Positions 5,822 through 35,342 of a stretch of 64,000 nucleotides of DNA are shown here, one piece after another. Numbering within the stretch: the first letter of the stretch is position 1; each line of letters begins with the position of its first letter. Position numbers and translations under genes: made by a program. The stretch is from contig JAJFLJ010000083.1 in the NCBI GenBank assembly GCA_021772755.1, forward strand, positions 1,416 through 65,415, written 5' to 3'. The DNA is from Candidatus Sumerlaeota bacterium. Lineage in GTDB: Bacteria > Sumerlaeota > Sumerlaeia > SLMS01 > JAHLLQ01. The notes below the pieces were generated by a model. It was not told where the DNA came from, did no database searches, and saw nothing but the letters and a program-made list of their open reading frames with translations.

Positions 5822-6579
5822 AGCGTTCTTCCATCGCCGCCATCGCCGTGCTTGCCGCCATGACGGCAACCGCCCAGGACACCGAACAGAACGAAATGCG
5901 GGAGGAGATCGAGCTCTCGATCGAGAAGGAGATCGACGGGGAGATCGGAAAGAGGATCGAAGAGGAGATCGAGGTCGAATGGGGCGACCGAACAAGGGAG
6001 GCGAAGGCGAAAGAGGAAGCGGACAGGGAAGTCGTCCGGGAGTTCATCATTCGCAACGACGACGGGACCGGCGGCGGCTGGGGGTCCGTGCACGTCATTT
6101 CCCCGGACATGCAGAAGTTCATGCGGATCGAACTGCCGGAAGTCTTGGAGCAGATGGAGAAGATCCAGCTCGACGTCGAACGGAACTTCGACCCCAGGGA
6201 ACGCGCGCGCCTGGAGCGGGACCGCACCCGCCTGCTGAGCTTCGCGCGGGAGTTCCGGAACGTCAGCATCGAGGTGCCCGAGATCGCGGACGACGTGCGG
6301 AAGCGGCACGCCCTGGAGACCGAGGCGGACGAGCTTGCCCGCAAGTACGCCGAAAGCGGCGACAAGGCGGAAAAGGAGAGGCTGCGCACGGAGCTGCGCG
6401 AGACCCTCGACGAGGCCTTCGCGCTCTCGGTCAGGATCCGAGAACACGAGGCGGAACAGATCGAGAAGGAACTCGGGGAGATCAAGTCGCTCCTGGAGGA
6501 GCGCCGGCGAAACCGCGTGGCCATCGTCGAACGCCGCATGAGCGAGCTGCTGGACGGCGTCGATCCCTACGAGTGGTGA
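5818..6579 (+). CDS. Secreted, highly charged alpha-helical protein (Spy/CpxP-like periplasmic stress protein?)
   Basis: ATGA overlap with the anti-sigma gene. Signal peptide MKRSSIAAIAVLAAMTATA. E/K/R-rich helical repeats (EIELSIEKEIDGEIGKRIEEEIEVEW). Third gene of the ECF operon. Confidence 0.5.
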   Translation: MKRSSIAAIAVLAAMTATAQDTEQNEMREEIELSIEKEIDGEIGKRIEEEIEVEWGDRTREAKAKEEADREVVREFIIRNDDGTGGGWGSVHVISPDMQKFMRIELPEVLEQMEKIQLDVERNFDPRERARLERDRTRLLSFAREFRNVSIEVPEIADDVRKRHALETEADELARKYAESGDKAEKERLRTELRETLDEAFALSVRIREHEAEQIEKELGEIKSLLEERRRNRVAIVERRMSELLDGVDPYEW

Positions 6580-6646
6580 CGATCTAACCTCGACACGACC
6601 CGGCTGGTCCGCTTATCCGCATCGCATTTCCTGCGGGAGAGGACCC

Positions 6647-8371
6647 ATGAACCACCGGCCGTTTTCGAAGATTCTCGTCACAGGCGTTCTGGCCTGCTCC
6701 GCCCTCGCGGGCGCGGAGAACACCGACATCCTGCGGGGCCTGCCCGTTCGCGAGGTGACCGTCTTCAAGGACGGACACGCCTGGGTTCGGCACGAGGGCG
6801 AGGTCGTCCTCGACGCCCAGGGCCGCTCCAGTTTCGACGAGCTCCCGGCCGCCGTGCTCGGCACGTTCTGGGTCGCGTCGGAAACGGAGGGCGTCGAACT
6901 GCTTTCGGCGACTTCCGGCCGCGAGGAAACCCGTTCCGAACCGCAGCCCGCCCGCACCTTCGCGGAGCTCTTCGCCGCGAACACCGGCAAGCGCGTCCGC
7001 CTGGTGGAGCGCCCCTTCAACGACGCCACCGCCCCCAGAACCTGGGAGGGCAGCGTGCTCGCCGCGCCCGACGAGTCCCTCGGCCAGTACGTCCTTCTGT
7101 CGCACGCCGACGGCACCGCCGCCATTCCCATCGGCAATATCGTCTCCGCCGATTTCATCGGCGATTTCGACGACGAGTACACCACGAAGCTCGAGAAAGG
7201 AATGCTGACGCTGGACTTCGACGTCCCGAACGGCGAACTGCCGGACACGGCGCGCACGTCGGTCAGCTACGTCCAGCGCGGTCTGCGCTGGATTCCGGGC
7301 TACCGGATCGTTCTCGGCGATGGCGACACCGCGCACGTGGAGCTGCAGGCGACGATCGTCAACGACCTGGCGGACCTGAACGGAGTCTCCGCCGACCTGG
7401 TGATCGGCGTGCCCTCCTTCGAATTCGCCGGACAGCTCGACCCCATGTCGCTTCAGGAACATCTCGCCCGCGTGGATGCCGCCAGGGTCTCGGGAGTCCG
7501 CCGCATGGACCCTTCCTACCTGAGCAACAGCGCCATCATGGCCCAGACGTCCTTCTACGGGGACTACGACGCGCACGAATCCGAAGCCCCCGCACCCGAC
7601 GGCCCCGTCATCGGCGGCGGAGAGCGCAACGAGGACCTGTACGTCTTCAGCGTCGAGAATCTCTCGCTGAAGAAGGGCGACCGCATGGTCGTTCCGGTGA
7701 CGACGTTCGAAATCCCCGCCGACATCGTCTACAAACTGACCATCCCGTACGGCCCCCCTGCGGAGGCCCGTGCGACGTGGAACTCGCGCCATCACGACGA
7801 GTTCGAGCAGCGCCGGGGAAAGCCCGTCGCCAGGAGCGTCATCCGCCTGGAGAACACGGGAACCGCCCCCATCACCACGGCGCCGGCGCTGATCTTCAAC
7901 GGCGACCGCATCCTCGCCCAGGGCATGACGCGCTATACCCCCGTCGGCGGGGACCTGGACATCGAGATGACGGAGGCCGTGGACATTCGCGTCCGCAAGC
8001 GCGACGTCGAGACGAATCGCGTTCCGAACGACCTTACCTGGCGCAGCGAAAAGATGACGCGCATCGACATGGAGGGCACCGTCACGATCACCAACTACAA
8101 GGACGGACCGGTCTCCATCGACGTGCGGCGCGAGATTCTCGGCAGGATCGGGGAGGCCGGACCCGGCGGCGAGGCCGTCCAGCTCGGCGGCGACTGGGAC
8201 GACGACTTCGAGAGCTACACGGAAAAGCCCTACTGGTGGAACTGGTACTCGTGGCCCTGGTGGTGGCACGCCAACAACGGCACGGGGTTCTTCCAGTGGA
8301 AGGGGTTGGAGCTCCAGCCCGGGGAGTCGAAGACGCTGAACTACGACTGGAAGTACTACTGGTCGGGCTGA
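6647..8371 (+). CDS. Secreted DUF4140/DUF4139-type (MuiA-like) protein with a C-terminal Trp cluster
   Basis: Signal peptide; N-terminal pattern VREVTVFKDGHAWVRHEGEVVL resembles DUF4140; length 574 aa. C-terminus YWWNWYSWPWWWH. Family call is from memory of the domain pattern. Confidence 0.45.
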   Translation: MNHRPFSKILVTGVLACSALAGAENTDILRGLPVREVTVFKDGHAWVRHEGEVVLDAQGRSSFDELPAAVLGTFWVASETEGVELLSATSGREETRSEPQPARTFAELFAANTGKRVRLVERPFNDATAPRTWEGSVLAAPDESLGQYVLLSHADGTAAIPIGNIVSADFIGDFDDEYTTKLEKGMLTLDFDVPNGELPDTARTSVSYVQRGLRWIPGYRIVLGDGDTAHVELQATIVNDLADLNGVSADLVIGVPSFEFAGQLDPMSLQEHLARVDAARVSGVRRMDPSYLSNSAIMAQTSFYGDYDAHESEAPAPDGPVIGGGERNEDLYVFSVENLSLKKGDRMVVPVTTFEIPADIVYKLTIPYGPPAEARATWNSRHHDEFEQRRGKPVARSVIRLENTGTAPITTAPALIFNGDRILAQGMTRYTPVGGDLDIEMTEAVDIRVRKRDVETNRVPNDLTWRSEKMTRIDMEGTVTITNYKDGPVSIDVRREILGRIGEAGPGGEAVQLGGDWDDDFESYTEKPYWWNWYSWPWWWHANNGTGFFQWKGLELQPGESKTLNYDWKYYWSG

Positions 8372-8467
8372 CCGGCGGCGGAATCCGGGTGACATCCGCG
8401 ATTCGCGCATGAATCGTGCAGGCCACGTGTTGGCGCGGCACCCCCGCCCGACGGACGGCAGGACACG

Positions 8468-9646
8468 ATGGCACCACTGAAACGAATCGGACGCGGCATT
8501 CGGGAATACTACCGCGATCTGCTGGCCACCCGCCGGACCTACACGGTGACGCGCGAGGGCTGGCTCTTCGTCGTCGTCACGCTCGCCATCGGTCTCGCCG
8601 CGCTGAACACGGCGGCCCAGCTGCTCTTTCTGGTATTCGCGCTGATGTGTTCCTTCTGGACGCTTTCGGCGGTGCTCGCGACCGCCAGCATGCGCGGCCT
8701 CGGGATCGAGCGCAGCGCGCCGTGGCTCGCGACCGCCGCCGCTCCCGTCTCCGTCGATGTGACGATCCGGAACCGGAAGAAGTCCGCCGAAAGCCACTCG
8801 CTGCGGGTTTCCGACCGCCTGAAGGACAAGACCGCCGTCGGCGCGGCGTTCTTCGTCCGCATCGGACGGGCCGCGTCCGCGCGCACCGCATACCAGTGCG
8901 TCTTTCCCCTGCGCGGCCGCTACGAGTTCGGCGACCTCACCATCGCCACCCGCTTTCCCTTCGGCCTGATCGAGCGAACGCTCTCCAAGAGCCGCCCGCG
9001 CGAGATCGTCGTGCTGCCCCAGACGATCGACGTCGGACGGGTTCTGCGGTCGGCGCAGGTCGATCTCGGCGACCAGGAAGTCAACGTCAAGGGCCGCGGC
9101 GCGGGGCTCTTCGGCATTCGCGAATACGCTCCCGGCGAGTCCGCCCGCGACATTCACTGGCGGGTCTCGGCGCGGACCGGCACGCTGATGACGCGCGAGT
9201 ACGAAACCGAGGAAAAGCGCCGCGCCAGCATCCTGATCGACAACCGGCTTCCGCAGGACGCCGGCCCCGCGGAACGCGAGCGGTTCGAACACGCCATCGT
9301 GCTCGCCGGTTCCATCGCCAGGCACCTCGTCGACCAGGGCCACCAGGTCGAGCTTCTCACGGCGGACGGAAAGGTCGCGTTCGGCATGGGTCCCGCGCAT
9401 CTGCGGCGCTGCCTGCGGGCGCTCGCGCTTCTGGAGGCGCGCGTCGGTGGAGCGCACGGTCCGCTTTCCCACGAACCCGCCGCCGACAGCGTGCAGGTCG
9501 TCGTCTGCCACACGGGGCGCGAAGCCGTTTCGCCGGACGCCGTGGCGATTTCGGTGCGCGACCACGAAACGGAACTCGCCGCCGCGTTCGCCGCCGGGAC
9601 GCCCGGCGTCGCCGGCGAGCTTCCCGGCGTGGAGCAGCTCGCGTGA
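8468..9646 (+). CDS. DUF58 domain protein (usually partnered with MoxR ATPase and TgpA transglutaminase)
   Basis: Two N-terminal TM helices plus the DUF58 signature GRGAGLFGIREYAPGESARDIHWRVSARTGTLMTREYE. Confidence 0.8.
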   Translation: MAPLKRIGRGIREYYRDLLATRRTYTVTREGWLFVVVTLAIGLAALNTAAQLLFLVFALMCSFWTLSAVLATASMRGLGIERSAPWLATAAAPVSVDVTIRNRKKSAESHSLRVSDRLKDKTAVGAAFFVRIGRAASARTAYQCVFPLRGRYEFGDLTIATRFPFGLIERTLSKSRPREIVVLPQTIDVGRVLRSAQVDLGDQEVNVKGRGAGLFGIREYAPGESARDIHWRVSARTGTLMTREYETEEKRRASILIDNRLPQDAGPAERERFEHAIVLAGSIARHLVDQGHQVELLTADGKVAFGMGPAHLRRCLRALALLEARVGGAHGPLSHEPAADSVQVVVCHTGREAVSPDAVAISVRDHETELAAAFAAGTPGVAGELPGVEQLA

Positions 9647-12048
9647 ATCTTGGCGTCGCCTTCCGCCGTCTGACGTTCGCCACCGCATTGTGGGCGTTCC
9701 TGACGCTTTGTTCCACGGGACAGCTGCATCTGCCGGTGGCCGCCGGTTTCCTCGTCGTGCTGATCGCCGCGTGGCGCCATCCCCGGCTGGGCGAGAAACT
9801 GTCGCCGAAGGTCTGGACGCTCGTCAGTCTCGTCGCCCTGGCCGGCGCCCTCTTCGGATGGTTCTTCCTCTTCCAGCGCATGTACTCGGCGACCTATCTG
9901 TTCTTCTATCTCGAACTGAACCGCCTGCTTCTCGCCAGGACCAACCGCGACTGGGCTCAGGTCTACGCGCTGACGTTCTTCCACGTTCTCGCCGCGTCGG
10001 TTTCGACGGAGGCCGTGTTCATCGCGCCGATGATCGCCGTCTATATGCTGCTCGTCATTTCCGCGATGATGGTCTTCACGATCAAGCGCGACGCGGAAAC
10101 CGCCTTCGCTCCCGCGCCGCCGGCCGGTCGCGGACGAAAGGGGGAGCCCGCCGCGAACGCGCCCATGCGCGTCGCGGGCGCGGACACCGACCGCCTTCGC
10201 CAGGTCGCCCGCTACCACTGGCTGACGCGGCGCTTCGGATGGTCGCTGACCGCGATGACGGTGTTCGTTCTGCTGGGCGGAATGGGGCTCTTCTGGCTGA
10301 TTCCCCGTTCGGCGAACAAGGCGTTCTTCTCGCCCTTCGGCCCCGACAGCAACTCCGCCCGGATGAGCGGATTCGCCGACAACGTCGAGTTCGGCGGTGT
10401 CGGCGAAATCCAGACCGACCCCGCCATCGTGATGCGCGCGGAGCCTCTTCTGGACGTCGGCGGCCGCCGGCCGGCGTTTCTTCGCGTCCGCGGGACGGCG
10501 CTCGACGACTTCAGCGGCCGCAACTGGCGCAAGTCCCCCGCCGGCGCCAACCAGCGCTTCGAGTCCACCACGGACAACACGGTCGTCTTTCGCGACGCCG
10601 AACTCCATACCAGCATGAACCCCTCCGAACGCACGATGGACTTCCGGATGACCGTCGAGCCCGAACGGTCCGGCTACATCTTCGTTCCCGACCAGCCCGT
10701 GCGCATCGTCTTCGACCGCGATCAGACGCTGGCCGTGGATACCGCGCTCGTCAGCGCCCAGCTCATCGGGTCCCGCAACTCGCAGACCACGTACACGTCC
10801 CGCGCGTTTCTTCCGGCGGACCAGATGCCCGGCGCGTTGCGCTCCGGATTCGAACCGGCGAACGAGGGCCAGGGGCTGCCTGCGGCGGTCGGGCGCCTGG
10901 GAGAGCGGTTCGTCGACGACGCGCGCGCGCTCGTCGAACGCACCTCCGGCGACCGGTCGCGACGCGACGACGACCTCTCCCCGGTCTACCTCTCCATTCC
11001 CAACTACGAGGGGCGCGACGTCGTCGCCCGCACCGCCGCCGAGTGGGTCGCCGGCCGCAACGACCCCGCCGACATCGCCGAGGCGGTCGAGAACCGCTTC
11101 AAGACGCAGTTCGACTATTCCCTGAAGAGCGACTTCTCCAACCGCGAGGACCGTCTCGCCGTGTTCCTCGACGAGGCGAAGAGCGGCCACTGCGAATACT
11201 TCGCGACCGTGATGGCGCTGATGCTGCGCGAGCGGGGAATCCCCGCCCGCATCGTGAACGGCTATCTCACCGACGAATGGATGGAGTCCGCAGGCCGGTT
11301 CATCGTCCGCCAGGAACACGCGCACTCATGGGTCGAGGCCCGCGTCGACGACAGCGGTCTCTGGCGCACGTACGACCCCACGCCGGCGTCCGGCATCGGA
11401 GCCAACAGAACGGGCCAGTCCCTCTACCGGTGGTGGAGCCGCAGCATCGACGCCGCGAAGCTCTACTGGTACGAGTCCGTGATCGACTACAACATGGAGG
11501 ACCAGCGGAGCGGATTCCGCGCGGTGCTGGCGGGACTCGCGCGCGCCAGCGAGAAGACGCAGTTGGGTCTGCGGAACATGCGCCGGTGGTGGTCGGGGTC
11601 CGCGGAGGACGGGGAGAGCGGCGCGAAGTCGCTGATCCCGCGCATGGCTGCGGGCGCGCTCGGTCTTGCCGTTCTCGCGGGGCTGGTGTTTCTCGTTCGC
11701 CTGCGCCCCGGGCTCTTCGCGAGAAGGCGCAGAGACGACGATGCGCCCGTCGTTCGCGACGACCTGAAGCCGTACATCGAACTGCTACTCGAAGCCGAGC
11801 GGGTCTTTCCGCGCGCGCCGGCGGTCACGCCCCGCGCGTGGGCGCGAACCGTCGCGGCGGAACCCTCGCTCTCCGGGTTCGTTCCCCTCACCGACGCGTA
11901 CTATCGCGCGCGCTTCGAGGGCGTTCCCTTCGACGACGGCCTGCGGGAGACGATTCGCACGCTGCGGGACCAGGTTCGCGAACGGCGCGCATCCACCCGC
12001 CGCACGAGCCGTTCGGGCACCGTTCGCAAGCCGGACGCCGCGCAATGA
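9643..12048 (+). CDS. Transglutaminase-like membrane protein (TgpA/DUF3488 family)
   Basis: GTG start overlapping the DUF58 stop (GTGA). N-terminal multi-TM region. Transglutaminase core with Cys (AKSGHCEYFATVMALMLRERGIPARIVNGY) and downstream HAWVE...D. Confidence 0.8.
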   Translation: MNLGVAFRRLTFATALWAFLTLCSTGQLHLPVAAGFLVVLIAAWRHPRLGEKLSPKVWTLVSLVALAGALFGWFFLFQRMYSATYLFFYLELNRLLLARTNRDWAQVYALTFFHVLAASVSTEAVFIAPMIAVYMLLVISAMMVFTIKRDAETAFAPAPPAGRGRKGEPAANAPMRVAGADTDRLRQVARYHWLTRRFGWSLTAMTVFVLLGGMGLFWLIPRSANKAFFSPFGPDSNSARMSGFADNVEFGGVGEIQTDPAIVMRAEPLLDVGGRRPAFLRVRGTALDDFSGRNWRKSPAGANQRFESTTDNTVVFRDAELHTSMNPSERTMDFRMTVEPERSGYIFVPDQPVRIVFDRDQTLAVDTALVSAQLIGSRNSQTTYTSRAFLPADQMPGALRSGFEPANEGQGLPAAVGRLGERFVDDARALVERTSGDRSRRDDDLSPVYLSIPNYEGRDVVARTAAEWVAGRNDPADIAEAVENRFKTQFDYSLKSDFSNREDRLAVFLDEAKSGHCEYFATVMALMLRERGIPARIVNGYLTDEWMESAGRFIVRQEHAHSWVEARVDDSGLWRTYDPTPASGIGANRTGQSLYRWWSRSIDAAKLYWYESVIDYNMEDQRSGFRAVLAGLARASEKTQLGLRNMRRWWSGSAEDGESGAKSLIPRMAAGALGLAVLAGLVFLVRLRPGLFARRRRDDDAPVVRDDLKPYIELLLEAERVFPRAPAVTPRAWARTVAAEPSLSGFVPLTDAYYRARFEGVPFDDGLRETIRTLRDQVRERRASTRRTSRSGTVRKPDAAQ

Positions 12049-12108
12049 GACTTGCTGCCGCGCGCGGTCGCTGCTGATCTCGCCCCACCCGCCGCAAGGA
12101 TTCCGCCC

Positions 12109-12972
12109 ATGTCCGAGTTCAGCCTCCCCCAGCACCTGACGACCTGCCGCGAGTTCCGCATCGGCAACGTGCCCGTCGGCGGCGCGAACCCGATGGTGCT
12201 GATCGCCGGGCCCTGCGTGATCGAGAGCCTTGCCCACACGGTCGAAATCGCGGGACGCATCAAGGAGATCGCTCAGCGCACCGGCGTGCCGCTCGTCTTC
12301 AAGGCGTCCTACGACAAGGCCAACCGCAGTTCCAAGTCCTCCTATCGCGGTCCCGGTCTGGCGAAGGGGCTCGACATCCTGGGCGAAGCCGCCGAGGCGC
12401 ACGGCCTTCCGATCCTGACGGACGTTCACAGGGAGGAGGAGGCGTCGGCCGCCGCCGACGTCTGCGACATCCTCCAGATTCCCGCGTTTCTCTGCCGCCA
12501 GACGGACTTCGTCCAGGCCGTCGGCCGCGCCGGAAAACCCGTCAACGTGAAGAAGGCGCAGTTCATCGCGCCCGAGGACGTCGGCAACATCGTGGCGAAA
12601 CTGAACGAGGTCGGGTGCCACGACATTCTGCTCACCGAACGCGGAACGAGCTTCGGCTACCGCAACCTGGTGTCGGACTTTCGCGCGCTTCCGACGATGC
12701 AGAAGCTCACCGGCCTGCCGGTGTGCTTCGACGCGACCCACAGCGTGCAGCAGCCCGGCGGGCTCGGCGACGCCACCGGCGGAAAGCGCGAGTTCGTGCC
12801 GGTGCTTGCCCGCGCCGCCTGCGCCGTCGGCGTCAACGCGCTCTTCATGGAAGTGCACGAAGACCCCGCCAAGGCCCTCAGCGACGGCCCCAACGTCGTG
12901 CCGCTGGAGGAACTGGAATCGGTGCTCGGTGTCTGTGCCGCCATCGACCGCGCGCTGCGAAACGCCGGATAG
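12109..12972 (+). CDS. kdsA: 3-deoxy-8-phosphooctulonate synthase (KDO8P synthase)
   Basis: Near full-length match to the KdsA pattern (PCVIES, FKASYDKANRSS, LTDVH, QIPAFLCRQTD, FDATHSVQ). Confidence 0.9.
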   Translation: MSEFSLPQHLTTCREFRIGNVPVGGANPMVLIAGPCVIESLAHTVEIAGRIKEIAQRTGVPLVFKASYDKANRSSKSSYRGPGLAKGLDILGEAAEAHGLPILTDVHREEEASAAADVCDILQIPAFLCRQTDFVQAVGRAGKPVNVKKAQFIAPEDVGNIVAKLNEVGCHDILLTERGTSFGYRNLVSDFRALPTMQKLTGLPVCFDATHSVQQPGGLGDATGGKREFVPVLARAACAVGVNALFMEVHEDPAKALSDGPNVVPLEELESVLGVCAAIDRALRNAG

Positions 12973-23710: not shown

Positions 23711-25066
23711 CTATTCCTCCGGCGCCTCTCCGGTATTCCCGCTCCCCGTGATTTTCGCGCGCTCGATGGCTTCCTCGCGCGTGTCGCCATAGCATACCGT
23801 CTCTGGCTTCGACGGCATCTCCGCCACCCACCGGCCCGATTCGTCCTTCTTCGCGACGATGGGTGGTTCACTCTCGGCAACTGACGCGGGTGGAAGCGGC
23901 GGCGGCATCGGTGGAGACGACGCCCCCCCGGGCTGGCGCCGCGGCGGCGACTCCGCCTTCCAAGGCTTCATGCGGGCATCGCGCGTCCGGTGAATGCGGG
24001 CCAGTCCGTATCGCACGCCATCCGCGTCGTCCAGCACGGCGCTCGCCATGAAGTGGTCGAACGCCTGGTCCGCGCGCTCGAAGACCGCCTCGATCTTTCT
24101 GGAGAGATTCCTCCTCTGCCAGTTGCGGACGAGGCGCAGCACCATGGCGGCGATCAGGAACGCGGTCGCCAGCAGGACTGGCAGAGCATACTTCATGTTC
24201 GCGTCCATCTCGCTCAGTAGGGAGGCCGACAGGGAGATCGCGAAGATGGCACAGAACACGATCGCGACGCCGACGAGCAATCCCACGCAGCCCGTTCTCA
24301 GGCGCTCTGTCCCGATCTTGACGCCGGCCGATTTCCCCGATTCGGATTCCCAGACGAAGACCATCGGCTCGAGGGTCCGCGTCCGCACCTGGTGCCCGGC
24401 GGAGATCGTCCCGGCAAGCGTCGACTCGAACGTCAGCCACAGCGTCGCCACCGCGAGCGCGATTCCCGCAGCGTGGTACTGCCTGGCGGCGCCGAGGTAG
24501 AGGACCGCGAAGAGAATGTACAGAAACGACGCGACGAGGGACGCGGTCAGCAGCGCGTTCTCGCGCTTCTCCATGTAGACGGCCTCCACGATGTCGCGGC
24601 CCCGGGCGCCGGTCATCCAGAGATCGACCGCCGCGTCCGCGAAGAATCCGTTCCTGCCGAAAACCCTCGAGCACAGGCGCGGCATGAAGTGCTCCGTGTG
24701 CCGCTTGCGCTGGAACATCACCGAACCCGCCGCCCCCAGGGCGAAGAGGACCGGAAGTACCAGGCAGCCGAAGACCAGGAACAGTGCGACGATGACGATG
24801 AAAGCGAGAACGCCGAGCACCATCTGGCCCGGGTTCAGTCCCGCGCCGAAATGCCGAAACCGCCGCAGCAGCGAGCCGCGCGCGTGGACGAACCGCCGCA
24901 GGCAAAACGCCCGGTAGACGGCGTTGGTGTCCTCGCCGGCGACAAGCGGGTCCAGCCCGCGCATGAACGAGCCGAACCGCCGCAGCTCCCCCGTTGTGTC
25001 CCCCCGCTCGCCCATCGCTCTGCCCGCCTGGAGTTTCGATCCTGCGAGGATGGCCGCGACCCGCAA
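23711..25066 (-). CDS. Polytopic membrane protein with a C-terminal HicB/UPF0150-like domain; start uncertain
   Basis: Several TM helices, then a Pro-rich linker and ...KDESGRWVAEMPSKPETVCYGDTREEAIERAK, which matches the HicB-like pattern (KDEDGgwvAevPdlPGCvtqGDTlEEAlen). Confidence 0.5.
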   Translation of the reverse strand: MRVAAILAGSKLQAGRAMGERGDTTGELRRFGSFMRGLDPLVAGEDTNAVYRAFCLRRFVHARGSLLRRFRHFGAGLNPGQMVLGVLAFIVIVALFLVFGCLVLPVLFALGAAGSVMFQRKRHTEHFMPRLCSRVFGRNGFFADAAVDLWMTGARGRDIVEAVYMEKRENALLTASLVASFLYILFAVLYLGAARQYHAAGIALAVATLWLTFESTLAGTISAGHQVRTRTLEPMVFVWESESGKSAGVKIGTERLRTGCVGLLVGVAIVFCAIFAISLSASLLSEMDANMKYALPVLLATAFLIAAMVLRLVRNWQRRNLSRKIEAVFERADQAFDHFMASAVLDDADGVRYGLARIHRTRDARMKPWKAESPPRRQPGGASSPPMPPPLPPASVAESEPPIVAKKDESGRWVAEMPSKPETVCYGDTREEAIERAKITGSGNTGEAPEE

Positions 25067-26676: not shown

Positions 26677-27336
26677 CTAGTTCAGGAACGAGGGGTCGTG
26701 CGCCAGCGAGGGATCGTCGTAGATCCTCTTTCCGGCGTCGTAGGTCTGCTTGTACTGCTTGATCGGACTGAGGCCCTTGCGCGACGACCACTCGTTGGGC
26801 AGCGGAATCGGGAAGAACAGGATATAGAGATTCCGCTTGATAGTGATCTCCGTGGCGCCGCGCCCCGTCTGCACGAAGTAGTCCGAGCCGTCCAGACTGA
26901 ACACGGCGACCTCGACGTCGTAGGTGTAGACCTTCTCGCGCCACTCGTAGAAGAGCGAGGTCTTCACGATGTCGTTCACGCCGCCGTACCGGACCATGAT
27001 GTTCGCCTTGTAGTCCGGCGGGTCGCGCTCCCAGTCGACCTCGCTGCGCGCGCCGGCCTTGGCCAGCTCCAGCTGCGTCCGCGCCCGCATGTAGTCCGCC
27101 ACGTCGCCGTCGACGTACACCCCCAGAACCTCGACATCCACCAACTTGTTGCCGAGGCGCGAGAAGTCCATCGTGTAGAACGCGTCGTCGATCGCTTCGG
27201 CCATGAACTGCTGCTGGAAAGCGACGGGCGGGGTCAGACTGGATTCCGAGTCCGGAACCCATTTCGTTGCGCAGCCGAGGATCGGAAGCGCGGCCAGCGC
27301 GGTCAGCGCGGCGAGGAATGCTCGTGCGTGTTTCAT
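26677..27336 (-). CDS. Lipoprotein C (219 aa), third of three tandem lipoprotein genes
   Basis: Lipobox LAALPILGC. ATG overlaps the stop of the upstream lipoprotein gene (ATGA). No confident family match. Confidence 0.7.
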   Translation of the reverse strand: MKHARAFLAALTALAALPILGCATKWVPDSESSLTPPVAFQQQFMAEAIDDAFYTMDFSRLGNKLVDVEVLGVYVDGDVADYMRARTQLELAKAGARSEVDWERDPPDYKANIMVRYGGVNDIVKTSLFYEWREKVYTYDVEVAVFSLDGSDYFVQTGRGATEITIKRNLYILFFPIPLPNEWSSRKGLSPIKQYKQTYDAGKRIYDDPSLAHDPSFLN

Positions 27337-28088
27337 GGCGTGTCGGTCTCCTGACGGTGGTTTCGTACGTCCTGAATCAGCGATTCGAGGGCCTTGCGGT
27401 ATTCCATGGCAAGATGGTCGAGGACCCTCTGCTCGGCCTCGAGTTTCCGGTACCATCCGTCGGTTCGGCTGTCGCCGACCGACAACGTGCGGGTCGCAGG
27501 CGGACTTCCGTCGTCGCCGGCGATCGCGAGATCGATCCGTCCGGCAAGAGTCGTCCGCCCCGTCGGAGCCCCCAGCGCGTGCGCGAGAAACGCCAGCGGT
27601 CCCAGACCATAGCGGTAGTCGCGTCGAACGAGCTGCAGTTCGTCGACTCGCACCTTCAGAACCCGAAGCGGCCGGTCGTCCGGACTCCACGCGCCCACCT
27701 CCGAGCGCGCCCCGAACACGGGGCCGAACGCGCCCGACGCCGCCAGTTGCAAACGCGCCGCCTCGTGCAGCGACGACGTCGCCGTGAACTGCATGTCGTC
27801 CCGCGGAGCGGATCCGAACCGCGAGCCGTTCTCGAGAAGCGCCAGGTCGAACATGGCGTCCCGCTCCGTCGTCCAAAGCACCAGCGGAAGATACCGCAGC
27901 AGTCCGGGCCCCTCGTTCCGCGCCGGCCGCGCGTCCTCGACCGGCAGAACCAGACCGACCATCGACGGAACCGTGTCGCTCCTCGGGCCCTGGTCGTACC
28001 TCCACCGAACCGGAGGCTTCATGCATGCGCACACCGATGCGACGCACACGAGAAGGGCCGCGATGCGGAGGCGCGTCACCATGTCCAT
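27333..28088 (-). CDS. Lipoprotein B (251 aa)
   Basis: Signal peptide with lipobox VASVCAC. 13-nt overlap with the upstream lipoprotein A gene. Confidence 0.65.
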   Translation of the reverse strand: MDMVTRLRIAALLVCVASVCACMKPPVRWRYDQGPRSDTVPSMVGLVLPVEDARPARNEGPGLLRYLPLVLWTTERDAMFDLALLENGSRFGSAPRDDMQFTATSSLHEAARLQLAASGAFGPVFGARSEVGAWSPDDRPLRVLKVRVDELQLVRRDYRYGLGPLAFLAHALGAPTGRTTLAGRIDLAIAGDDGSPPATRTLSVGDSRTDGWYRKLEAEQRVLDHLAMEYRKALESLIQDVRNHRQETDTP

Positions 28089-28840
28089 GCCTCTTCCTCC
28101 GTGCCCTCGCCGGTTTCGGGGACGGGCGGCGTTTCCGCGGCAGCGGAGGGGGCTTCCGCAGAACGCGCGAACGCGTCGCGGTATTCCTCGCGAACCAGCG
28201 AGATCTCCGGAACGCCCTCCGCGCGAAACTCCTCGACGGTGGACTCCAGCAGCTTCGTCAGCAGCGAAGAGAGGCCCCGGCGGCTGAAGAACCCGACGCC
28301 GGGCGGCACGAGTTCGTCCGTCGGCCGGTACGTATCGACCTTTCCGACGAACTGCCGCTGAAAGAGCATCGTGCCGTTCAGGTCGAACACGACTCCGCGG
28401 ATCTTGCAGACGCCGTAGACGTGGTCGGCCATCAGGTGCGCCTGCGGGTGACGGCTGAGCGTCAGGTCCTGAAGCTCCAGCCGGAGGTGCAGCGGCGGCG
28501 CCCCGGACGCGGCAGCGCCGATCCTTCGGGCCTTCGACGCGCCGGGATACTCCGCGCAGTCGAAACCGCTCCGTTCCAGACTCTGCACCACTTCCGCCTC
28601 GAAGTAGTCGTGAAGGGAATCCGTCAGCAGAATCCTGTACTGGCCGCCCCAGATCCTGTTGCCGGCGCTTCCGATGGGATTCGCCCGGTCGATGAGATCG
28701 ACGGTCTCCACCATGAAGTCCGAACGCTGGCCGGCCTCGCGCAACTGCGCGGGACGGTGGTCAGGCGCCGAGACGCGAAACGCCGTGCATCCTCCGAGAA
28801 GGAGTGCCCACAGGCACGCCAGGAACAAGGGTCGTATCAT
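28076..28840 (-). CDS. Lipoprotein A (254 aa)
   Basis: Lipobox LLLGGC. Begins 8 nt after the stop of the 1244-aa protein gene on the same strand. Confidence 0.7.
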   Translation of the reverse strand: MIRPLFLACLWALLLGGCTAFRVSAPDHRPAQLREAGQRSDFMVETVDLIDRANPIGSAGNRIWGGQYRILLTDSLHDYFEAEVVQSLERSGFDCAEYPGASKARRIGAAASGAPPLHLRLELQDLTLSRHPQAHLMADHVYGVCKIRGVVFDLNGTMLFQRQFVGKVDTYRPTDELVPPGVGFFSRRGLSSLLTKLLESTVEEFRAEGVPEISLVREEYRDAFARSAEAPSAAAETPPVPETGEGTEEEAWTW

Positions 28841-28847
28841 CGCCGTC

Positions 28848-31800
28848 TCAGTTCCCGTACATCAGATCGTAGAATCCGCTCCGCCGGATCCGCCGCTCCA
28901 CTGCGGCGCTGCGGCTCTGCAGACCCCCCATGATCCGCTGCGTTTCCGACAGCTTCTCCTGGAGAGTCCCCTGATCCATCTGCTGCATGCTCGCGGGATC
29001 GGAGAGCACCTTCATCCCCTCCAGCGCCGTCGCCATGTCGCCGAAGAACTCGCGGTCCTCGTTCGTCAGCATGTCGCAGTTCCGCAGGTTCGCCGCCCAG
29101 CGGTTCACCCGAATCGAATCGTCGAAGTACGAGGCGGACTGGCTTTGGATCTCGCCGATGTCGCGGCGGTTGATCGCGCCCATCATCGGATTGTTCGCGC
29201 CCGACAACCGCGCGATCCGCTGGAGAGCCGTCCGAACCGCCGACGGGGGATCGCAGTCGGAATCAGTCGCATCCGCCACTTCGTCCGCAGGCTTCAGGTC
29301 CACCCAGTCGCCGGCCACGCCGATCCCGCGCGGTCCCACCATCGCCGCCCAGAGATACTGACGCCGGGAGTCGGTTCGCTTCGTCTCGAGAAAGAGCTTC
29401 GCCGTTCCGCCGGTGTACTCCACGTCGATGTTCGGGGACACGAGCACGCCGCCCCGGCGAACGTTGCCGACCCGTTCGGTGCCGCGCAGTTCCAGCGGCG
29501 CACGCGTTCCCAGCGGAATCCCCGTGTCGCGGAATTCCATTCGCGAAACCACGGAAGCGAGATCGATGCGCGCCTCCGCACCCTCCGAATCGAGGATGTC
29601 CACGACGGGCGGCCGCTCGAGTTCGCCGAGATTCAGCTCCCCCTTCATCATCAGGGAACCCATCGATTCCTGGTACGCCCCCATTTCCAGCGCGCCCCGG
29701 GGGGTCTGGCGCCGAATGCGGAACGGCGGCTCGAAGTCGCGGTGCGCCCGAAACAGGAGAGTCACCGTGCCCTTCGACTCGTCGAGCCCCTCCTCGGAAA
29801 CGCGCGACTCGATCATCGTCAGATCGACGTTGCAGGAGAACTTGATCGGATAGTCGGTCCCGTCGTGTTGCAGGACGAACATCGCCGTCTGCTGTCCCGA
29901 GAGCCGCGGCCGGAAGAACACGACGCCCCGGTCCAGCCTGAAATCCGATCCCTTGTACGTTCCCAGGCCGTGAATGTCCCCTTCGGCCAGATCGCCGGTC
30001 GAGAAGGGGAGTCCGTCGATCATCAGCGGCGTCGACTGTCCCGTCGTCAGCGCCCCGGCCCAGCTTACGCGCGCGCTGGAGAACTCCGAGTCCGGCGGAA
30101 CGTCCTCGGGCGGCAACAGTTCGAACCGTCCCCGCGCCGGAACCGTTCCCGCGACCGACACGACCTGCGCCTCGATCTCGTACGTGCCCAATGCCGCGCG
30201 CTCCGAGAACCGGATGTCGTTGACATAGCCGTTCGCTCCCGCCGTGCGCTCCGTTCCATTGTCCCGCGATGGCACGCGACGGCCTCCGGGCATCGTCATG
30301 AACCAGTCCACGCGCTCGACGCCCAACGACGAGTCCGGCGCCGGCGCGAGTTCGGCGAGTCCCGGCACCATGAGACGAAGAACGCCCTCTTCCCCCGAGT
30401 CGCTCTTTACCGTGACGGAAAGTTCGCCGGAATACTCCGCGTCGAAATTCAGCACCGCGCTCTCGAAAGGCTTTCCGCCGTAGATGACCGCCATCCTCGC
30501 CTTGTACGGCCCGACCCGCGGCGGACCGTCGAACCGAATGACTCCCGACTCCGCGCCGGCGGCGCTGACCAGGTCGCGGCGATACTCCACGTCGTGCTCG
30601 GCCCCCGCGGAATCGAGAACCTTGATGGCGAGATCGTGCTTCTTTCCCGGGGGAACGGAGTAGGAATAGCGCAGCGCCAGCGGCTTCAGGATCTCGACCC
30701 GTCCGCCACCTTCGACGGCCAGTTCCAGCGCTTCAGGCAATGACGCGCGCCCGCCCCGTTCCAGACGAACCGTCGTGACCGATCCTTCCGGGCCCACGCG
30801 AATCGAATCGGCGAGTGAACGAAATCCGACCGCCGCGACTTCGACCTTCGTCAGAGCATCGGGTACGACCGCCAGCGACACGCCGCCCTCGGGATCGGAA
30901 ACGCCATTGTCCCGGTGATTGCCGGAATCGACCCGAACCGTCGCGCCGGCGACGGGATCGCCGCTCCCCGCGTCGAGGACGATGACCTTCAGATCGCCGA
31001 CTGCGGAACCCGCTTCCGGCTCCAGTTCGATGCGCTCCAGCACGGGCTCCTCGTGCAGCTGAACCCCCCAGTCGCTCACCGGCTGGTAGCCCGGAGCCTC
31101 CACCGCCATCACGACGTACATTCCGTCGGGAAAGTCGCGCCACGCGAATCCCTCGTCGTCCGTCTCCCCGTTCGCCGTTCTCTCCTCGAACCAGTAGTCG
31201 ATCTTGGCGCCCTGGATCGGCTTGTCCGAACGGCGGTCCACGACCTGTACGGTCAGTCCGTGCGGCGCGTGGGGCTGAAGATGCGCGGTGATTTCCGGGC
31301 CGGGGTCCTTGTCCGGATAGAACGCGTCCTCCGAATCGCGGTAGCGGTACTTCCAGATGCGGAAATTCAGCTTCGGCGTCATCCGGGGGGCGTTGATCGT
31401 TCCCGTTCCGTCGGCGGCCGTTTCGAACTCGCCGCGCTCGTTCTGCCACATCGTGTACCACGCGACGCGCGCCCCCGCGACCGGGTCGCCGGACGACGAA
31501 TCGACGACCCGCACCGTCCAGTCCCTGCGCTCCGTCAGCCGCCGCAACTCCGCGTTCAGCCGCTGCTCCCGCGCCCGAATCTCGTTGAGGATGCGGCCCT
31601 CGAACAGGTCGCGCCGCTCCTCGAGAATCATCCGCATTCCCGTGACCAGATGGTTTCGCACGAGCCGGCCGCGAAACGCGTCCTTCATCCTCGCGTTCGC
31701 CAGCGCCGAACGGTACGTGAACGGCGGTCGGCGCCCCTCCACTTCGGTGAAGTAGTAGTCGAAGATCTCCGCCGTGGTCGTCGCCGCCCCGCCGGGCAGG

Positions 31801-32582
31801 CGAAAGCGTTCGGGATCGTCCCAGAACGAATCGAGGTACGTGACGTAGTCCTCGCCCTCTCCCCCCGCCCAGGCCGGCTCGAACAGGTCCGCCCAGTCCT
31901 GCATCCCCATCTTTCCCGGACCCTGCAGGAAGAACCACTGGTACGCGTCGTACCAGGCCTCCTCGTAGCTCGTCAGCGACTCCTCCAGCACCTTCGTCAG
32001 GGCGTAGTCCACGAACGCCAGATTGAACGCCCACGCCGCCGACGCCGCGTTCATCGGAAACCGGTTCATGTAGTACAGCATCCCGGTCCGGACGTAGCCC
32101 CACATGTCCTCGTCCTTGAAGTTCTGGTCCACGTACAGCGCCTTGAAGAGCTGGTACGTCGCCAGAAACGCCCCGAGGTCCGTCAGGATGTTGTTCACCT
32201 CGCCCAAGCTGCGCGAGAACGCCGCGTCCGGCGAGATCGCCGACGCGGCGACGCTCGAACCCGTTACGCCGATCGCGCCGGCATTCACCACGCCTGGATT
32301 GGAAGAGAGTTCCTCGATGGAGGCGAGCACGAGGCCCGCCACCGCCTCGTTCCCCTGGTCGCGCGCCATCTGCGCGACCATCCGCGCGACGAGCTGCGTC
32401 GAGCGGCGTTCCCGCTCCTTCGTGTCCTCGATCGACCAGAGCGCGTCGAACTCCTCCGCCCACTCGACCGCGTTCAGGTCTCCGAGATCATCCGCCGCCG
32501 CCACACCCGGCAGCGCGAACAGCGCCGCCAGGGCGAGCAAACCAATGAATGCGCCAAGGGCGCGGCGAACCCGACAAGACAA
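28848..32582 (-). CDS. Giant secreted protein (1244 aa) with three carboxypeptidase-regulatory-like (CarbopepD_reg) beta-sandwich repeats
   Basis: Signal peptide MSCRVRRALGAFIGLLALAALFALPGVAAA. Repeated VRVVDSSSGDPVAGARVAW / TVQVVDRRSDKPIQGAKIDY / KVIVLDAGSGDPVAGATVRV modules flanked by acidic segments. About 330 aa helical N-domain and ~600 aa beta-rich C-region. Confidence 0.75.
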   Translation of the reverse strand: MSCRVRRALGAFIGLLALAALFALPGVAAADDLGDLNAVEWAEEFDALWSIEDTKERERRSTQLVARMVAQMARDQGNEAVAGLVLASIEELSSNPGVVNAGAIGVTGSSVAASAISPDAAFSRSLGEVNNILTDLGAFLATYQLFKALYVDQNFKDEDMWGYVRTGMLYYMNRFPMNAASAAWAFNLAFVDYALTKVLEESLTSYEEAWYDAYQWFFLQGPGKMGMQDWADLFEPAWAGGEGEDYVTYLDSFWDDPERFRLPGGAATTTAEIFDYYFTEVEGRRPPFTYRSALANARMKDAFRGRLVRNHLVTGMRMILEERRDLFEGRILNEIRAREQRLNAELRRLTERRDWTVRVVDSSSGDPVAGARVAWYTMWQNERGEFETAADGTGTINAPRMTPKLNFRIWKYRYRDSEDAFYPDKDPGPEITAHLQPHAPHGLTVQVVDRRSDKPIQGAKIDYWFEERTANGETDDEGFAWRDFPDGMYVVMAVEAPGYQPVSDWGVQLHEEPVLERIELEPEAGSAVGDLKVIVLDAGSGDPVAGATVRVDSGNHRDNGVSDPEGGVSLAVVPDALTKVEVAAVGFRSLADSIRVGPEGSVTTVRLERGGRASLPEALELAVEGGGRVEILKPLALRYSYSVPPGKKHDLAIKVLDSAGAEHDVEYRRDLVSAAGAESGVIRFDGPPRVGPYKARMAVIYGGKPFESAVLNFDAEYSGELSVTVKSDSGEEGVLRLMVPGLAELAPAPDSSLGVERVDWFMTMPGGRRVPSRDNGTERTAGANGYVNDIRFSERAALGTYEIEAQVVSVAGTVPARGRFELLPPEDVPPDSEFSSARVSWAGALTTGQSTPLMIDGLPFSTGDLAEGDIHGLGTYKGSDFRLDRGVVFFRPRLSGQQTAMFVLQHDGTDYPIKFSCNVDLTMIESRVSEEGLDESKGTVTLLFRAHRDFEPPFRIRRQTPRGALEMGAYQESMGSLMMKGELNLGELERPPVVDILDSEGAEARIDLASVVSRMEFRDTGIPLGTRAPLELRGTERVGNVRRGGVLVSPNIDVEYTGGTAKLFLETKRTDSRRQYLWAAMVGPRGIGVAGDWVDLKPADEVADATDSDCDPPSAVRTALQRIARLSGANNPMMGAINRRDIGEIQSQSASYFDDSIRVNRWAANLRNCDMLTNEDREFFGDMATALEGMKVLSDPASMQQMDQGTLQEKLSETQRIMGGLQSRSAAVERRIRRSGFYDLMYGN

Positions 32583-32683
32583 CGAGCCACTCCGAGAGTA
32601 TCGTACCGCAACGACTCGTCGGCGCTCTGCGAATCGTCAACCGGAAAGGCCCCCGGCGGCGGCCAGCGTGAAGAAGCGAACCC

Positions 32684-33325
32684 CTACGCCCCGCCCCGAA
32701 CCAGCTCCTTCACCCACTCGATGCCGCCCTCGATTCCCGCAGCCCCCAGGAAGAACACCGCATAGAGAGCCACCGCGTACACGCCCACCGACAACACCCC
32801 CACCAGCAGCGCCAGCGCCACGAACACGCCGTCCTTCTCCGTCAGGCCGATGCCGATCAGAAAGATCGCCCCCGCAGGAATCGTGTTCGTTCCCGGAATC
32901 GGCAGCGTCATCAGCGCCGCCATCGCCAGCACCAGCAGACTCATCCCCGCCATCGCCCACCGGCTGCCCACCCACTGGAACCGCGGCCGGATGAAGCGCT
33001 CCAGCTTCGACGTCACCTTCACCGCGAAACCCATCATCGCGCCGCCAAGCCGCTTCGGAATGCGTCGCCGGCGAATCCAGCCCGGCAACGCCGGCACCCG
33101 CCGCCCCATCAGCATCTGCATGCCCAGGATGAAGAGCGCGATCCCGAACGGCGTGCTGTAGCCCGCCGCCGGAACCGGCAGCGCCGACGGCAGCGACAGC
33201 ACCACCAGCAGCAGCCCGAACCCCTTCTCCCCCACATTGTCGAGAATCTCGCCGATCGTGATGCCCTCGGGATGATCGCCGGAGAGAACGTCGGCGAGAC
33301 TTTCGGAAAGACTGCGGGCGGTCAT
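32684..33325 (-). CDS. exoD: Exopolysaccharide synthesis protein ExoD family (inner-membrane)
   Basis: N-terminal pattern LSESLADVLSGDHPEGITIGEILDNVGEKGFGLLLVVLSLPSALPV...GIALFILGMQMLMGRRVPALPGWI is characteristic of ExoD. About 213 aa. Confidence 0.75.
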   Translation of the reverse strand: MTARSLSESLADVLSGDHPEGITIGEILDNVGEKGFGLLLVVLSLPSALPVPAAGYSTPFGIALFILGMQMLMGRRVPALPGWIRRRRIPKRLGGAMMGFAVKVTSKLERFIRPRFQWVGSRWAMAGMSLLVLAMAALMTLPIPGTNTIPAGAIFLIGIGLTEKDGVFVALALLVGVLSVGVYAVALYAVFFLGAAGIEGGIEWVKELVRGGA

Positions 33326-33546: not shown

Positions 33547-33622
33547 GGGGCTATAGCTCAGCTGGTAGAGCGCTGCGTTCGCAATGCAGAGGTCAGGGGT
33601 TCGACTCCCCTTAGCTCCACCA
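33547..33622 (+). tRNA. tRNA-Ala (anticodon CGC), 76 nt including encoded CCA
   Basis: Cloverleaf checked by hand: acceptor GGGGCUA/UAGCUCC with the G3:U70 Ala identity pair; D-stem GCUC/GAGC; anticodon loop UUCGCAA; T-arm AGGGG-UUCGACU-CCCCU. Confidence 0.9.
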
Positions 33623-33789
33623 CTCAAACCCAACGAAATCAACAGCCAGGAAGAAGGCGTCCGAGCGGCGCCAAGCCGGTTCGCGTGTCTCGGGTCTCCT
33701 CCGCGTCACGGGTGTTTGGGACTATCGTCAGGCACGGTGAAGTACGGAACTCTCGTTGAATACGCGGGGGTTCTCACCGTACCATTCTG

Positions 33790-34818
33790 TTGTTGCTTGA
33801 TAGCGCCAGCCACAAGGATCCCGGTATGCTCGAAAGAATCCGAAACCACCCATTCGTTGCTGGGATCATTATTTCCTCTGTTGTCTGGCTAACTTTGGGC
33901 GGCGTAATCGGACGCGCTTTCTTGGTGGTGACAGGCAAGAATGAGACCTATTTGAATGGAAGAATCACCGAACTTGGGGAGGCTCGCCGGTCTCTTGATG
34001 ATCGCGCCAAGGGAATCGCCACACTGGAAACAAGCAATCAGCTGCTGGAGTATAAACTGGGGGAGTCCCGTACCCAATTAGCCAGCCTGGAGGAGCAGAT
34101 TGCAAAATACAGGGAATTGCAGTTGGAGGACAAGTATGCCGCAGAACGCGCCAGAGTTCGCTCATTGTCCGCTCAGGTGGAAGATCTAAAACTCAGTAAG
34201 GATCAAGAGACTGATAGACTGAGGCGTAGAAACGATGACTTGAGAAAAGAAGTATCGGCACTCCGGGCAGAACTGGCGAGGCTACCTGCGTTGCAGGAGG
34301 AGGGGATCTCAGGTTCCTTGGCCGCTGTTGATACGCTTGTTGCCGAGAAGTTGGACCTTCAACAGAAGGTTGAGGGACTCGTGGGGGAGTTGGAATCCTG
34401 CAAGGATAGCCGGATGGAACAGGAACACCAGTTGTCTCTAACCAAGAATGAGTTGCGGGAAGTACGCCTAATCGTTTCGGGAATCAAGCCAAGTGAGATA
34501 GAGGAGTTTGGTGAACGGAGCCAAGCCTTGGAGTCATTGATGGTAGCCCTACGTGGACTGAGCAACGATGTTGAAGCGGGAAACACTCTGCTGCGAAATA
34601 TTGGAAAGGTGAAGGGAGGAGTCACACCAGAAGAGTGGATTGCTCTGCTCCGAGCTGCCAATATTAGTGATGACTACTGCTACGCACAAGTCATAGCAAA
34701 AAGCGTGAAACATGTTAGTGAGAAGCCAAGCCCAAAGCAGATCCAGACCATATTGAGCAGTATGCACAACGATTCGTACGAGTCCCAAGTCTATGGGTTC
34801 TTACAGGGAATAGACTGA
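33790..34818 (+). CDS. Low-GC (about 50%) membrane-anchored coiled-coil protein; horizontally acquired cargo next to the tRNA
   Basis: N-terminal TM helix (FVAGIIISSVVWLTLGGVIG) followed by ~280 aa of heptad-like coiled coil. GC content drops sharply compared with flanking DNA. Confidence 0.6.
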   Translation: MLLDSASHKDPGMLERIRNHPFVAGIIISSVVWLTLGGVIGRAFLVVTGKNETYLNGRITELGEARRSLDDRAKGIATLETSNQLLEYKLGESRTQLASLEEQIAKYRELQLEDKYAAERARVRSLSAQVEDLKLSKDQETDRLRRRNDDLRKEVSALRAELARLPALQEEGISGSLAAVDTLVAEKLDLQQKVEGLVGELESCKDSRMEQEHQLSLTKNELREVRLIVSGIKPSEIEEFGERSQALESLMVALRGLSNDVEAGNTLLRNIGKVKGGVTPEEWIALLRAANISDDYCYAQVIAKSVKHVSEKPSPKQIQTILSSMHNDSYESQVYGFLQGID

Positions 34819-34835
34819 GGGCATCGGCCAACCGA

Positions 34836-35063
34836 TTATAGCGCAATCGCCCTGACCCTCGCCTCCACGGGCTCCAGTTCCGGCATCGCCAACGTCCCGT
34901 CAGCCCCTTCGTCCGGGTAGAAGCGCAGGTAGTGCAGTTCGGTCGTCTCCGTCGTGCTGTGTCCGAGCACCTTTGACAGCTTGAGGATCGGGTCGCCCTC
35001 GCGGGCCAGCGTCGCGGCAAACGTGTGCCGCAGGGTGTGGAGTGTCAGCGGACGGCGCAGCAT
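34836..35063 (-). pseudogene. Tyrosine recombinase (phage-type integrase) C-terminal remnant
   Basis: Catalytic C-terminus LHTLRHTFAATLAREG...LGHSTTETTELHYL (H-x-x-R ... H ... Y). Upstream in-frame sequence is unrelated and overlaps a repeat, so the gene is truncated. Confidence 0.65.
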
Positions 35064-35215
35064 CGCGCGTCCGGAGCGGCTGACGTTCGCTTGGGCGGGA
35101 CGCCCAAGCCACCCTTTGCGATTCTTCGCGCTCTCCGCGACTTTGCGTTGTGCTCTTTCTCCGCGAACTCTCGCCGTCCTCGGCGTCTCTGCGTACCGCT
35201 CTTTCCCACCGCCGC
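35060..35215. repeat. ~160-bp repeat, copy A (about 85% identical to 51875-52027)
   Basis: gcatcgcgcgtccggagcggctgacgttcgcttgggcgggacgcccaagccaccc...ctctgcgtaccgctctttccc aligns to copy B in the same orientation. A partial third copy (gggcggcccaagccgccct) lies at ~35247-35270. Confidence 0.6.
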
Positions 35216-35342
35216 AGAACACGGTTTCAGCGCCGAGGCCACACGCCGGGCGGCCCAAGCCGCCCTCTTCCCCGTTGCGGCCCCAGGCCGGTCCTGCGAT
35301 TTTGCGCCGTCTTCAATCCTCTCCGTTCTGAAAGGACGCGGC

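Follow-up and report, generated by a model that had tools for sequence, protein, structure and literature searches.

A rare cassette of three overlapping lipoprotein genes and a large secreted partner in Candidatus Sumerlaeota, with a possible role as an outer-membrane docking platform

What is made by a group of genes in which three short lipoprotein genes run into one another directly behind the gene of a very large secreted protein? Such a group lies on the minus strand at positions 26677-33325 of a 64,000-nucleotide stretch of DNA from a Candidatus Sumerlaeota bacterium (assembly GCA_021772755.1, contig JAJFLJ010000083.1; the whole stretch is referred to here as the window). It consists of exoD, the gene of a 1244-residue protein that we call BIG, and the genes of three lipoproteins, LipoA, LipoB and LipoC (the trio). 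A first-pass annotation, made from the letters alone, had taken the group for an operon and for the best candidate in the window for an undescribed cell-surface or exopolysaccharide-associated machine. We found that the trio and the C-terminal ~40% of BIG constitute a conserved core, to which, judging from the sequences of related loci, interchangeable N-terminal parts are joined. We propose that the three lipoproteins may form a platform at the outer membrane on which this C-terminal part docks.

The cassette and its conservation

The genes are laid out as follows.

28848-32582, minus strand: BIG, 1244 aa, TTG start, Sec-type signal peptide
28076-28840, minus strand: LipoA, 254 aa, lipobox LGGC, Cys18
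27333-28088, minus strand: LipoB, 251 aa, lipobox VCAC, Cys22
26677-27336, minus strand: LipoC, 219 aa, lipobox ILGC, Cys22
32684-33325, minus strand: exoD, 213 aa from ATG, Pfam ExoD

All five open reading frames (ORFs) were found where the first-pass annotation had placed them. Of the junctions, the 13-nt overlap of LipoA and LipoB and the ATGA overlap of LipoB and LipoC were as described, but the gap between BIG and LipoA, read from the sequence, is 7 nt and not 8 nt. The start of LipoB is preceded by a GGAGGAAGAGG Shine-Dalgarno sequence, and a GGAG stands 7 nt upstream of the TTG start of BIG. The GC content at third codon positions (GC3) of 0.81-0.86 marks the ORFs of BIG, LipoA, LipoB and exoD as coding; the 219-aa ORF of LipoC lies inside a longer ORF call and hence has no separate score. 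Scanning the locus for promoters gave no sigma-70-like site, and scanning for terminators gave one intragenic terminator-like hairpin, fewer than in shuffled sequences; both scans are uninformative for this phylum.

We compared about 14 distinct loci, in which all ORFs were scanned with hidden Markov models (HMMs) for LipoA, LipoB, LipoC and the C-terminus of BIG. The loci come from Ca. Sumerlaeota, Lentisphaeria and unassigned metagenomes; matches in reference genomes were to Sumerlaeota and one Lentisphaeria metagenome-assembled genome (MAG), and LipoC pattern scans of genomes and of metagenomes added three loci each. In the closest relative with enough flanking sequence, a Ca. Sumerlaeota MAG (L001, GCA_964580585.1), a BIG orthologue is followed by LipoA (64% identity), LipoB (55%) and LipoC (79%), with a 9-nt gap and then overlaps of 13 and 4 nt, as in the window. 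A second Sumerlaeia contig (L006) has the same arrangement at 72-83% identity. The order A-B-C is present in every locus except L003, and, where the gene calls of a locus read are intact, the trio genes overlap or lie no more than 33 nt apart.

A protein with the C-terminal module of BIG (the C-module) adjoins the trio in 12 of the 14 informative loci. Its gene lies upstream on the same strand in the window and in L001, L002, L006, L010, L015 and L017, is divergent in L008 and L009, and is convergent in L011. As the linkage is kept in three orientations, we argue that the tie is functional rather than merely transcriptional. These loci bear out the view that BIG and the three lipoproteins are a tightly linked unit. 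The cassette is thus real but very rare, and is restricted to a few uncultured bacterial lineages.

The large partner and its C-terminal module

BIG can be divided into the following parts.

32496..32582, minus strand: start and signal peptide, aa 1-29, ...ALPGVAAA/DD, read from sequence
31518..32495, minus strand: N-terminal domain, aa 30-355, lineage-specific, no recognisable relatives
30768..31517, minus strand: three CarboxypepD_reg modules of immunoglobulin-like (Ig-like) beta-sandwich type, aa ~356-605, Pfam PF13620
28851..30452, minus strand: conserved C-terminal module, aa ~711-1243, from HMM and BLASTP

The C-module has beta-type, beta-rich repeats followed by a terminal domain of ~150 aa, as seen from the module alignment. 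The terminal domain carries a conserved cysteine pair (C1110 and C1169; mature BIG has only one further cysteine), and a conserved (K/R)xGF motif stands ~10 residues from the C-terminus. An HMM built from eight partner proteins, covering BIG aa ~711-1243, matches the BIG ORF of the window with E=4e-144 and also matches every large protein that adjoins a trio in the other loci. BLASTP of BIG gave 2e-26 against the 646-aa protein of L009, 3.5e-13 against the 1101-aa protein of L010, 4e-11 against the 1010-aa protein of L002 and 1e-9 against the 1486-aa protein of L011, and three collinear high-scoring segment pairs link it to a 1689-aa Lentisphaeria protein. A word-indexed search with full-length BIG returned only itself and one orthologue, its candidate list being swamped by repeats; the wider partner family was recovered through gene neighbourhoods and the local HMM. 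In all sequence examined the C-module was seen only beside the trio, with one copy in the 64-kb window. At ~450-530 aa, it is a new module that was not described before.

The N-terminal parts of the partners, all of which have signal peptides, differ widely. In L002 and L010 they contain a caspase/legumain-like domain and three or four PASTA repeats (E=7e-31, 5e-22), and in L011 seven CarboxypepD_reg domains and a Big_1 domain. The CarboxypepD_reg arrays of L011_1486 and L015_1334 are similar to that of BIG. The N-termini in L008 and L009 are long sequences with only a borderline PT-TG match, and in L009 and L017 the C-module is a separate secreted protein of 644-646 aa.

In BIG itself, the three CarboxypepD_reg-like modules reported in the first-pass annotation score above the Pfam gathering threshold (three stretches, E=2e-18, 67 bits against a cutoff of 32.3). 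The N-terminal domain has no Pfam match, its sole match being the L001 orthologue; no Pfam or NCBIfam family matches BIG beyond aa 605, and searching PDB sequences with a profile yielded no usable match. BIG is acidic (pI, isoelectric point, 4.8) and low in cysteine. We rejected its assignment to the Kustd1514-type (anammox) S-layer glycoproteins (NF052345), as the local NCBIfam match involves only one Ig-like domain and reaches 22.6 bits against a cutoff of 1400. We also considered whether BIG could be a fusion artefact of a frameshifted assembly, a worry raised in the first-pass annotation. This is ruled out by the L001 orthologue, which has 1242 aa and is 70% identical and collinear over the whole length.

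Several of the related loci have features of their own. The pre-toxin PT-TG match (L008 3226-8295, L009 6736-9702) reaches 23.6-23.7 bits against a Pfam cutoff of 23.5, and we did not build on it; the domain is otherwise known from polymorphic toxins. In L015 a 366-aa lipoprotein (8904-10004) sits between the 1334-aa partner and LipoA. Its N-terminus, GCAMFKVNAPP, resembles the GCTAFRVSAP of LipoA, and the C-module HMM recognises the body of the protein over model positions 109-419. This lipoprotein could be a copy of the docking module with a lipid anchor. A small secreted tetratricopeptide-repeat protein precedes the caspase/PASTA partner in L002 (3305-4483, 392 aa) and in L010 (6163-6681, 172 aa); the two are 37% identical over 128 aa, and the window cassette has no counterpart. 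L004 (10667-10788) and L011 (8975-13435) are syntenic (dnaG-rpoD-...-gatCA-trio-369 aa-URO-D) except for the 1486-aa partner gene (seven CarboxypepD_reg domains and the C-module), which is convergent to the trio in L011 and missing from L004. On L016, a long-read-style contig, the PASTA-type partner and LipoB (5579-11427) are split into several short gene calls; the breaks are probably frameshift errors in the assembly, and gene counts there are unreliable.

The lipoproteins, a proposed docking platform and the alternatives

We analysed LipoA, LipoB and LipoC as sequence families and as predicted structures. Each signal peptide ends in a lipobox cysteine that is invariant or nearly so in the family alignments. 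None of the three has Asp at position +2, as read from the sequence, and the sorting rules of E. coli may not apply. LipoC is the most conserved member of the trio (23 full-length proteins of 52-83% identity among 5.8 billion); the LipoA family has 27 proteins, on the same contigs as LipoC, and LipoB, the least conserved, has 10 representative clusters among 1.84 billion proteins by exhaustive HMMER search. Cys22 of LipoB is followed by an invariant M-x-P-P motif. A long C-terminal helix is seen in LipoA, and its acidic tail ends in an aromatic residue (WTW), the acidic run and a terminal F or W being present in 26 of the 27 members. No Pfam or NCBIfam family matches any of the three at an E of 1 or better and profile searches against PDB sequences were empty, in agreement with the first-pass annotation, which could match none of them to a family with confidence. 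Names for any of these proteins were not found in the sources searched, and the literature search on Sumerlaeota lipoproteins and envelope returned nothing relevant.

Profile-profile comparison did not establish the three as paralogues, the results being either not significant or confounded. With hhalign, the alignment of LipoA with LipoC reached a probability of 78%, but the aligned region took in the signal peptides; LipoB and LipoA reached 2-9%. LipoB and LipoC reached 93%, but in columns beyond the window protein that come from one 337-aa sequence (P0060). In this relative of LipoB, a complete LipoB runs into the final ~80 residues of a LipoC, from 'GKDYFVQSGKG' on. A deletion that brought B and C together or an artefact of assembly would account for it, and we do not regard it as clean evidence of fusion.

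The AlphaFold model of LipoA (predicted local distance difference test, pLDDT, 84.5; predicted template modelling score, pTM, 0.78) matched HpaA (Z score 10.5), the DUF330 protein XCC0632 (10.3), PqiC (9.6), a flagellar LPHT-ring protein (9.6) and CT253 (9.6) best, followed by PelC (9.4), CsgG (9.3), the TolB N-domain (8.9), LptE (8.3-8.9), LpoB (7.2) and GNA1162 (7.1). The model of LipoC (pLDDT 74.9, confident core at 38-170) matched LpoB (7.6), Cj1090c (7.0), CsgG (7.0), PelC (6.4), GNA1162 (6.4) and LptE (5.6); its Foldseek matches were weak (E 2e-3 or worse, TM-score 0.28-0.46), the credible ones being the same proteins. As modelled, LipoA and LipoC thus belong to the PqiC/LptE/PelC/CsgG/LpoB structural class, at the level of the fold only. 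Both combine a lipobox with the predicted alpha/beta core common to this class of outer-membrane lipoproteins (PMC13631591). The likeness to CsgG, DUF799 and LpoB that the first-pass annotation had considered therefore stands for the folds of LipoA and LipoC and fails for family membership, as there is no HMM match and the sizes and the composition of the trio differ. In these monomer models the low-confidence loops are only 10-14 residues long, with no detached hairpins, and LipoC has unusually long beta-strands of 18-19 residues. Two low-confidence loops, 174-183 of LipoA ('TDELVPPGVG') and 174-187 of LipoC ('FFPIPLPNEWS'), are both conserved and are, together with the LipoA tail, candidate interface elements.

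How could the trio and the C-module work together? The reading that we favour, and that we consider about evenly balanced between right and wrong, is that the trio is a hetero-oligomeric platform at the outer membrane on which the C-module of the partner docks. LipoA, LipoB and LipoC would be held by their lipids, most likely to the inner leaflet of the outer membrane, and would be made in fixed proportion from their overlapping genes. Once assembled, the platform would bind the C-module of the Sec-exported large protein (beta-sandwich repeats and a disulfide-stabilised terminal domain with its (K/R)xGF tail) and in this way hold the interchangeable N-terminal 'working end' of the partner at the outer membrane. 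In the window this end would be the N-domain without recognisable relatives and the three Ig-like CarboxypepD_reg modules; in other lineages it would be a caspase/legumain-like domain with peptidoglycan-binding PASTA repeats, or a long CarboxypepD_reg array. We infer the outer-membrane location, the physical A-B-C assembly, the binding of the C-module and the periplasmic orientation, as well as the stoichiometric co-expression and the envelope 'complex' of the first-pass annotation, from several lines of evidence.

The window encodes KdsA (3-deoxy-8-phosphooctulonate synthase, 12052-12972; NCBIfam equivalog, 392 bits against a cutoff of 242), implying that 3-deoxy-D-manno-octulosonic acid (Kdo) is made; from its gene content, the host is thus very probably a diderm with lipopolysaccharide and an outer membrane. 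The signal peptides of all the partners and the conserved cysteine pair suggest that the partner is extracytoplasmic. That the C-module is common to the partners while their N-terminal domains swap, and that it can stand alone (L009, L017), is what docking through this module would be expected to produce, and the conserved tails, (K/R)xGF in the partners and the acidic-aromatic end in nearly all LipoA proteins, are consistent with it. Members of the PqiC/LptE/PelC/CsgG/LpoB class act by assembling into rings or plugs and by offering a docking site to a large partner. The PqiC-like rings, which hold the C-terminal tail of a large periplasmic partner in a hydrophobic groove (PMC13631591), provide a precedent. 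The PASTA repeats of the L002 and L010 partners hint at contact with peptidoglycan, and hence at the periplasm.

A number of points weigh against a docking platform. The fold matches, which concern LipoA and LipoC but not LipoB, do not go beyond the level of the class (identities of 6-16%, Z of at most 10.5), and the functions of the proteins in that class vary widely. PASTA domains are absent from BIG, whose periplasmic orientation is thus extrapolated from relatives. Sorting of the lipoproteins to the outer membrane is presumed, and the contacts of A, B and C with each other and with the C-module are postulated. Moreover, in L004 and L005 no partner lies within 10 kb of the trio, and in L003 only B and C are present; the trio may work without a large protein, or with one encoded elsewhere. 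The same loci are what speaks for an autonomous trio, for example a factor of outer-membrane biogenesis or peptidoglycan regulation like LptE or LpoB, both of which are fold relatives, with partners that are co-regulated or co-inherited and do not bind. We consider this improbable. A C-module protein adjoins the trio in 12 of 14 loci, in three orientations and in at least two phyla, and this outweighs the hint of autonomy from L003 and L004; the restriction of the C-module to the neighbourhood of the trio also argues against it.

It is possible, though we think it unlikely, that the trio instead forms or gates an outer-membrane conduit, as in the CsgG pore or the PelC funnel under a porin, in which case the C-module would be a sorting and anchoring signal and the partner would be held on the surface as an adhesin, an S-layer-like coat or an enzyme. 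A variable N-terminal part joined to a conserved C-module follows the cargo logic of surface-display systems, and both LipoA and LipoC have CsgG and PelC among their fold matches. Surface proteins often carry CarboxypepD_reg and Big_1 arrays, there is the local match to the anammox S-layer protein, BIG is acidic and cysteine-poor, and a partner gene that is found in L011 and missing from the syntenic L004 is typical of variable surface proteins. However, the cassette has no beta-barrel gene, and the low-confidence loops of LipoA and LipoC appear, in the monomer models, too short for transmembrane hairpins of the CsgG type. The long strands of LipoC are in favour of a conduit, but by eye they lack the alternating pattern of membrane strands. 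The PASTA repeats of some partners suggest the periplasm, NCBIfam finds no type IX C-terminal signal, and the S-layer match is far below its cutoff. A bolder form of this proposal, an undescribed export and surface-anchoring route of Sumerlaeota, Lentisphaeria and related lineages, would have a hetero-oligomeric lipoprotein ring recognise the ~450-530-aa module and display the interchangeable N-domains (proteases, peptidoglycan binders, Ig-like stalks) on or in the envelope; we regard it as distinctly unlikely.

The exopolysaccharide machine of the first-pass annotation, working together with ExoD, we hold to be very improbable. The identity of the ExoD protein is clear (PF06055, E=1.1e-55, profile positions 1-179 of 180), its gene is immediately upstream of BIG on the same strand, and PelC, a lipoprotein of exopolysaccharide export, is among the fold matches. 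But exoD is separated from BIG by 101 nt and adjoins the cassette in none of the other loci with enough flanking sequence, L001 included, so that exoD is not part of the conserved cassette and the proposed link is left without support. In addition, no glycosyltransferase, polymerase or Wza/PelB-like gene is found in any cassette.

The stretch directly upstream of exoD is of a different kind. Within 33547-35260, a tRNA-Ala(CGC) at 33547-33622 on the plus strand is followed by a low-GC stretch (0.53-0.54, against 0.66-0.69 around it), which contains a 342-aa ORF (33790-34818) with no Pfam match and, at 34836-35258 on the minus strand, a truncated tyrosine-recombinase fragment (PF00589, E=1.8e-8, last 50 profile positions only). 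The arrangement resembles what is left of an element that had inserted at the tRNA. Elsewhere in the window, a 451-aa ORF at 23711-25066 on the minus strand lies between uvrB and cysS; it has a GC3 of 0.87, several hydrophobic stretches and no Pfam match, and at its start it overlaps the region annotated as the start of cysS.

Relation to known envelope systems

The fold class and the docking principle are already known; the heterotrimeric cassette, its three sequence families and the C-module were not described before. Several major envelope machines end at the outer membrane in lipoproteins of the PqiC/LptE/PelC/CsgG class; to our knowledge, all characterised examples are homo-oligomers or single plugs. 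If our proposal is right, a three-lipoprotein cassette tied to a new C-module on swappable large proteins would be a new use of this fold, and would offer a first way into the envelope architecture of phyla that have hardly any cultured members or none. The practical weight of this is limited by the few dozen occurrences in billions of proteins, and by the N-domain of BIG in the window, which so far offers no functional clue.

We compared the cassette with the systems that it resembles. As in type IX cargo, a functional N-terminal part that can be exchanged is joined to a C-terminal part that is conserved. The cassette differs in the size of the latter (~450-530 aa against ~80 aa), in the lack of type IX genes and in the host phyla, and no Pfam or NCBIfam type IX C-terminal domain matches BIG. 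PelC, a dodecameric funnel under PelB, and LptE, a plug in LptD, come with pel and lpt genes and a beta-barrel partner that the cassette does not have; LipoA, LipoB and LipoC are not members of their sequence families, and the assembly would be hetero-oligomeric where theirs are homo-oligomeric or monomeric.

The known CsgG-like trio includes a DUF4810 member of ~120 aa. The trio described here has proteins of 254, 251 and 219 aa with no ~120-aa member, is tied to a large partner protein, and shows no HMM match to CsgG (PF03783), DUF799 (GNA1162), DUF4810 or LpoB at an E of 1 or better. LpoB is a penicillin-binding protein activator, characterised by its binding to PBP1B through the UB2H domain. 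The CsgG pore in the outer membrane is built from two extended amphipathic hairpins per subunit, giving 36 strands, and none are evident in the monomer models of LipoA and LipoC, although LipoC has its strands of 18-19 residues. From the PqiC-like proteins (DUF330/ABC_trans_aux) with their MCE partners PqiB and PA3213, the trio is set apart by the lack of a PF03886 match and an identity of 10-16%, and no MCE or PqiA/LetA-type genes occur in the window cassette or any related locus. The architectures differ as well: PqiC is a homo-octamer whose partner is a helical needle, whereas the cassette encodes three different lipoproteins, and the conserved part of their partner is a beta-rich module.

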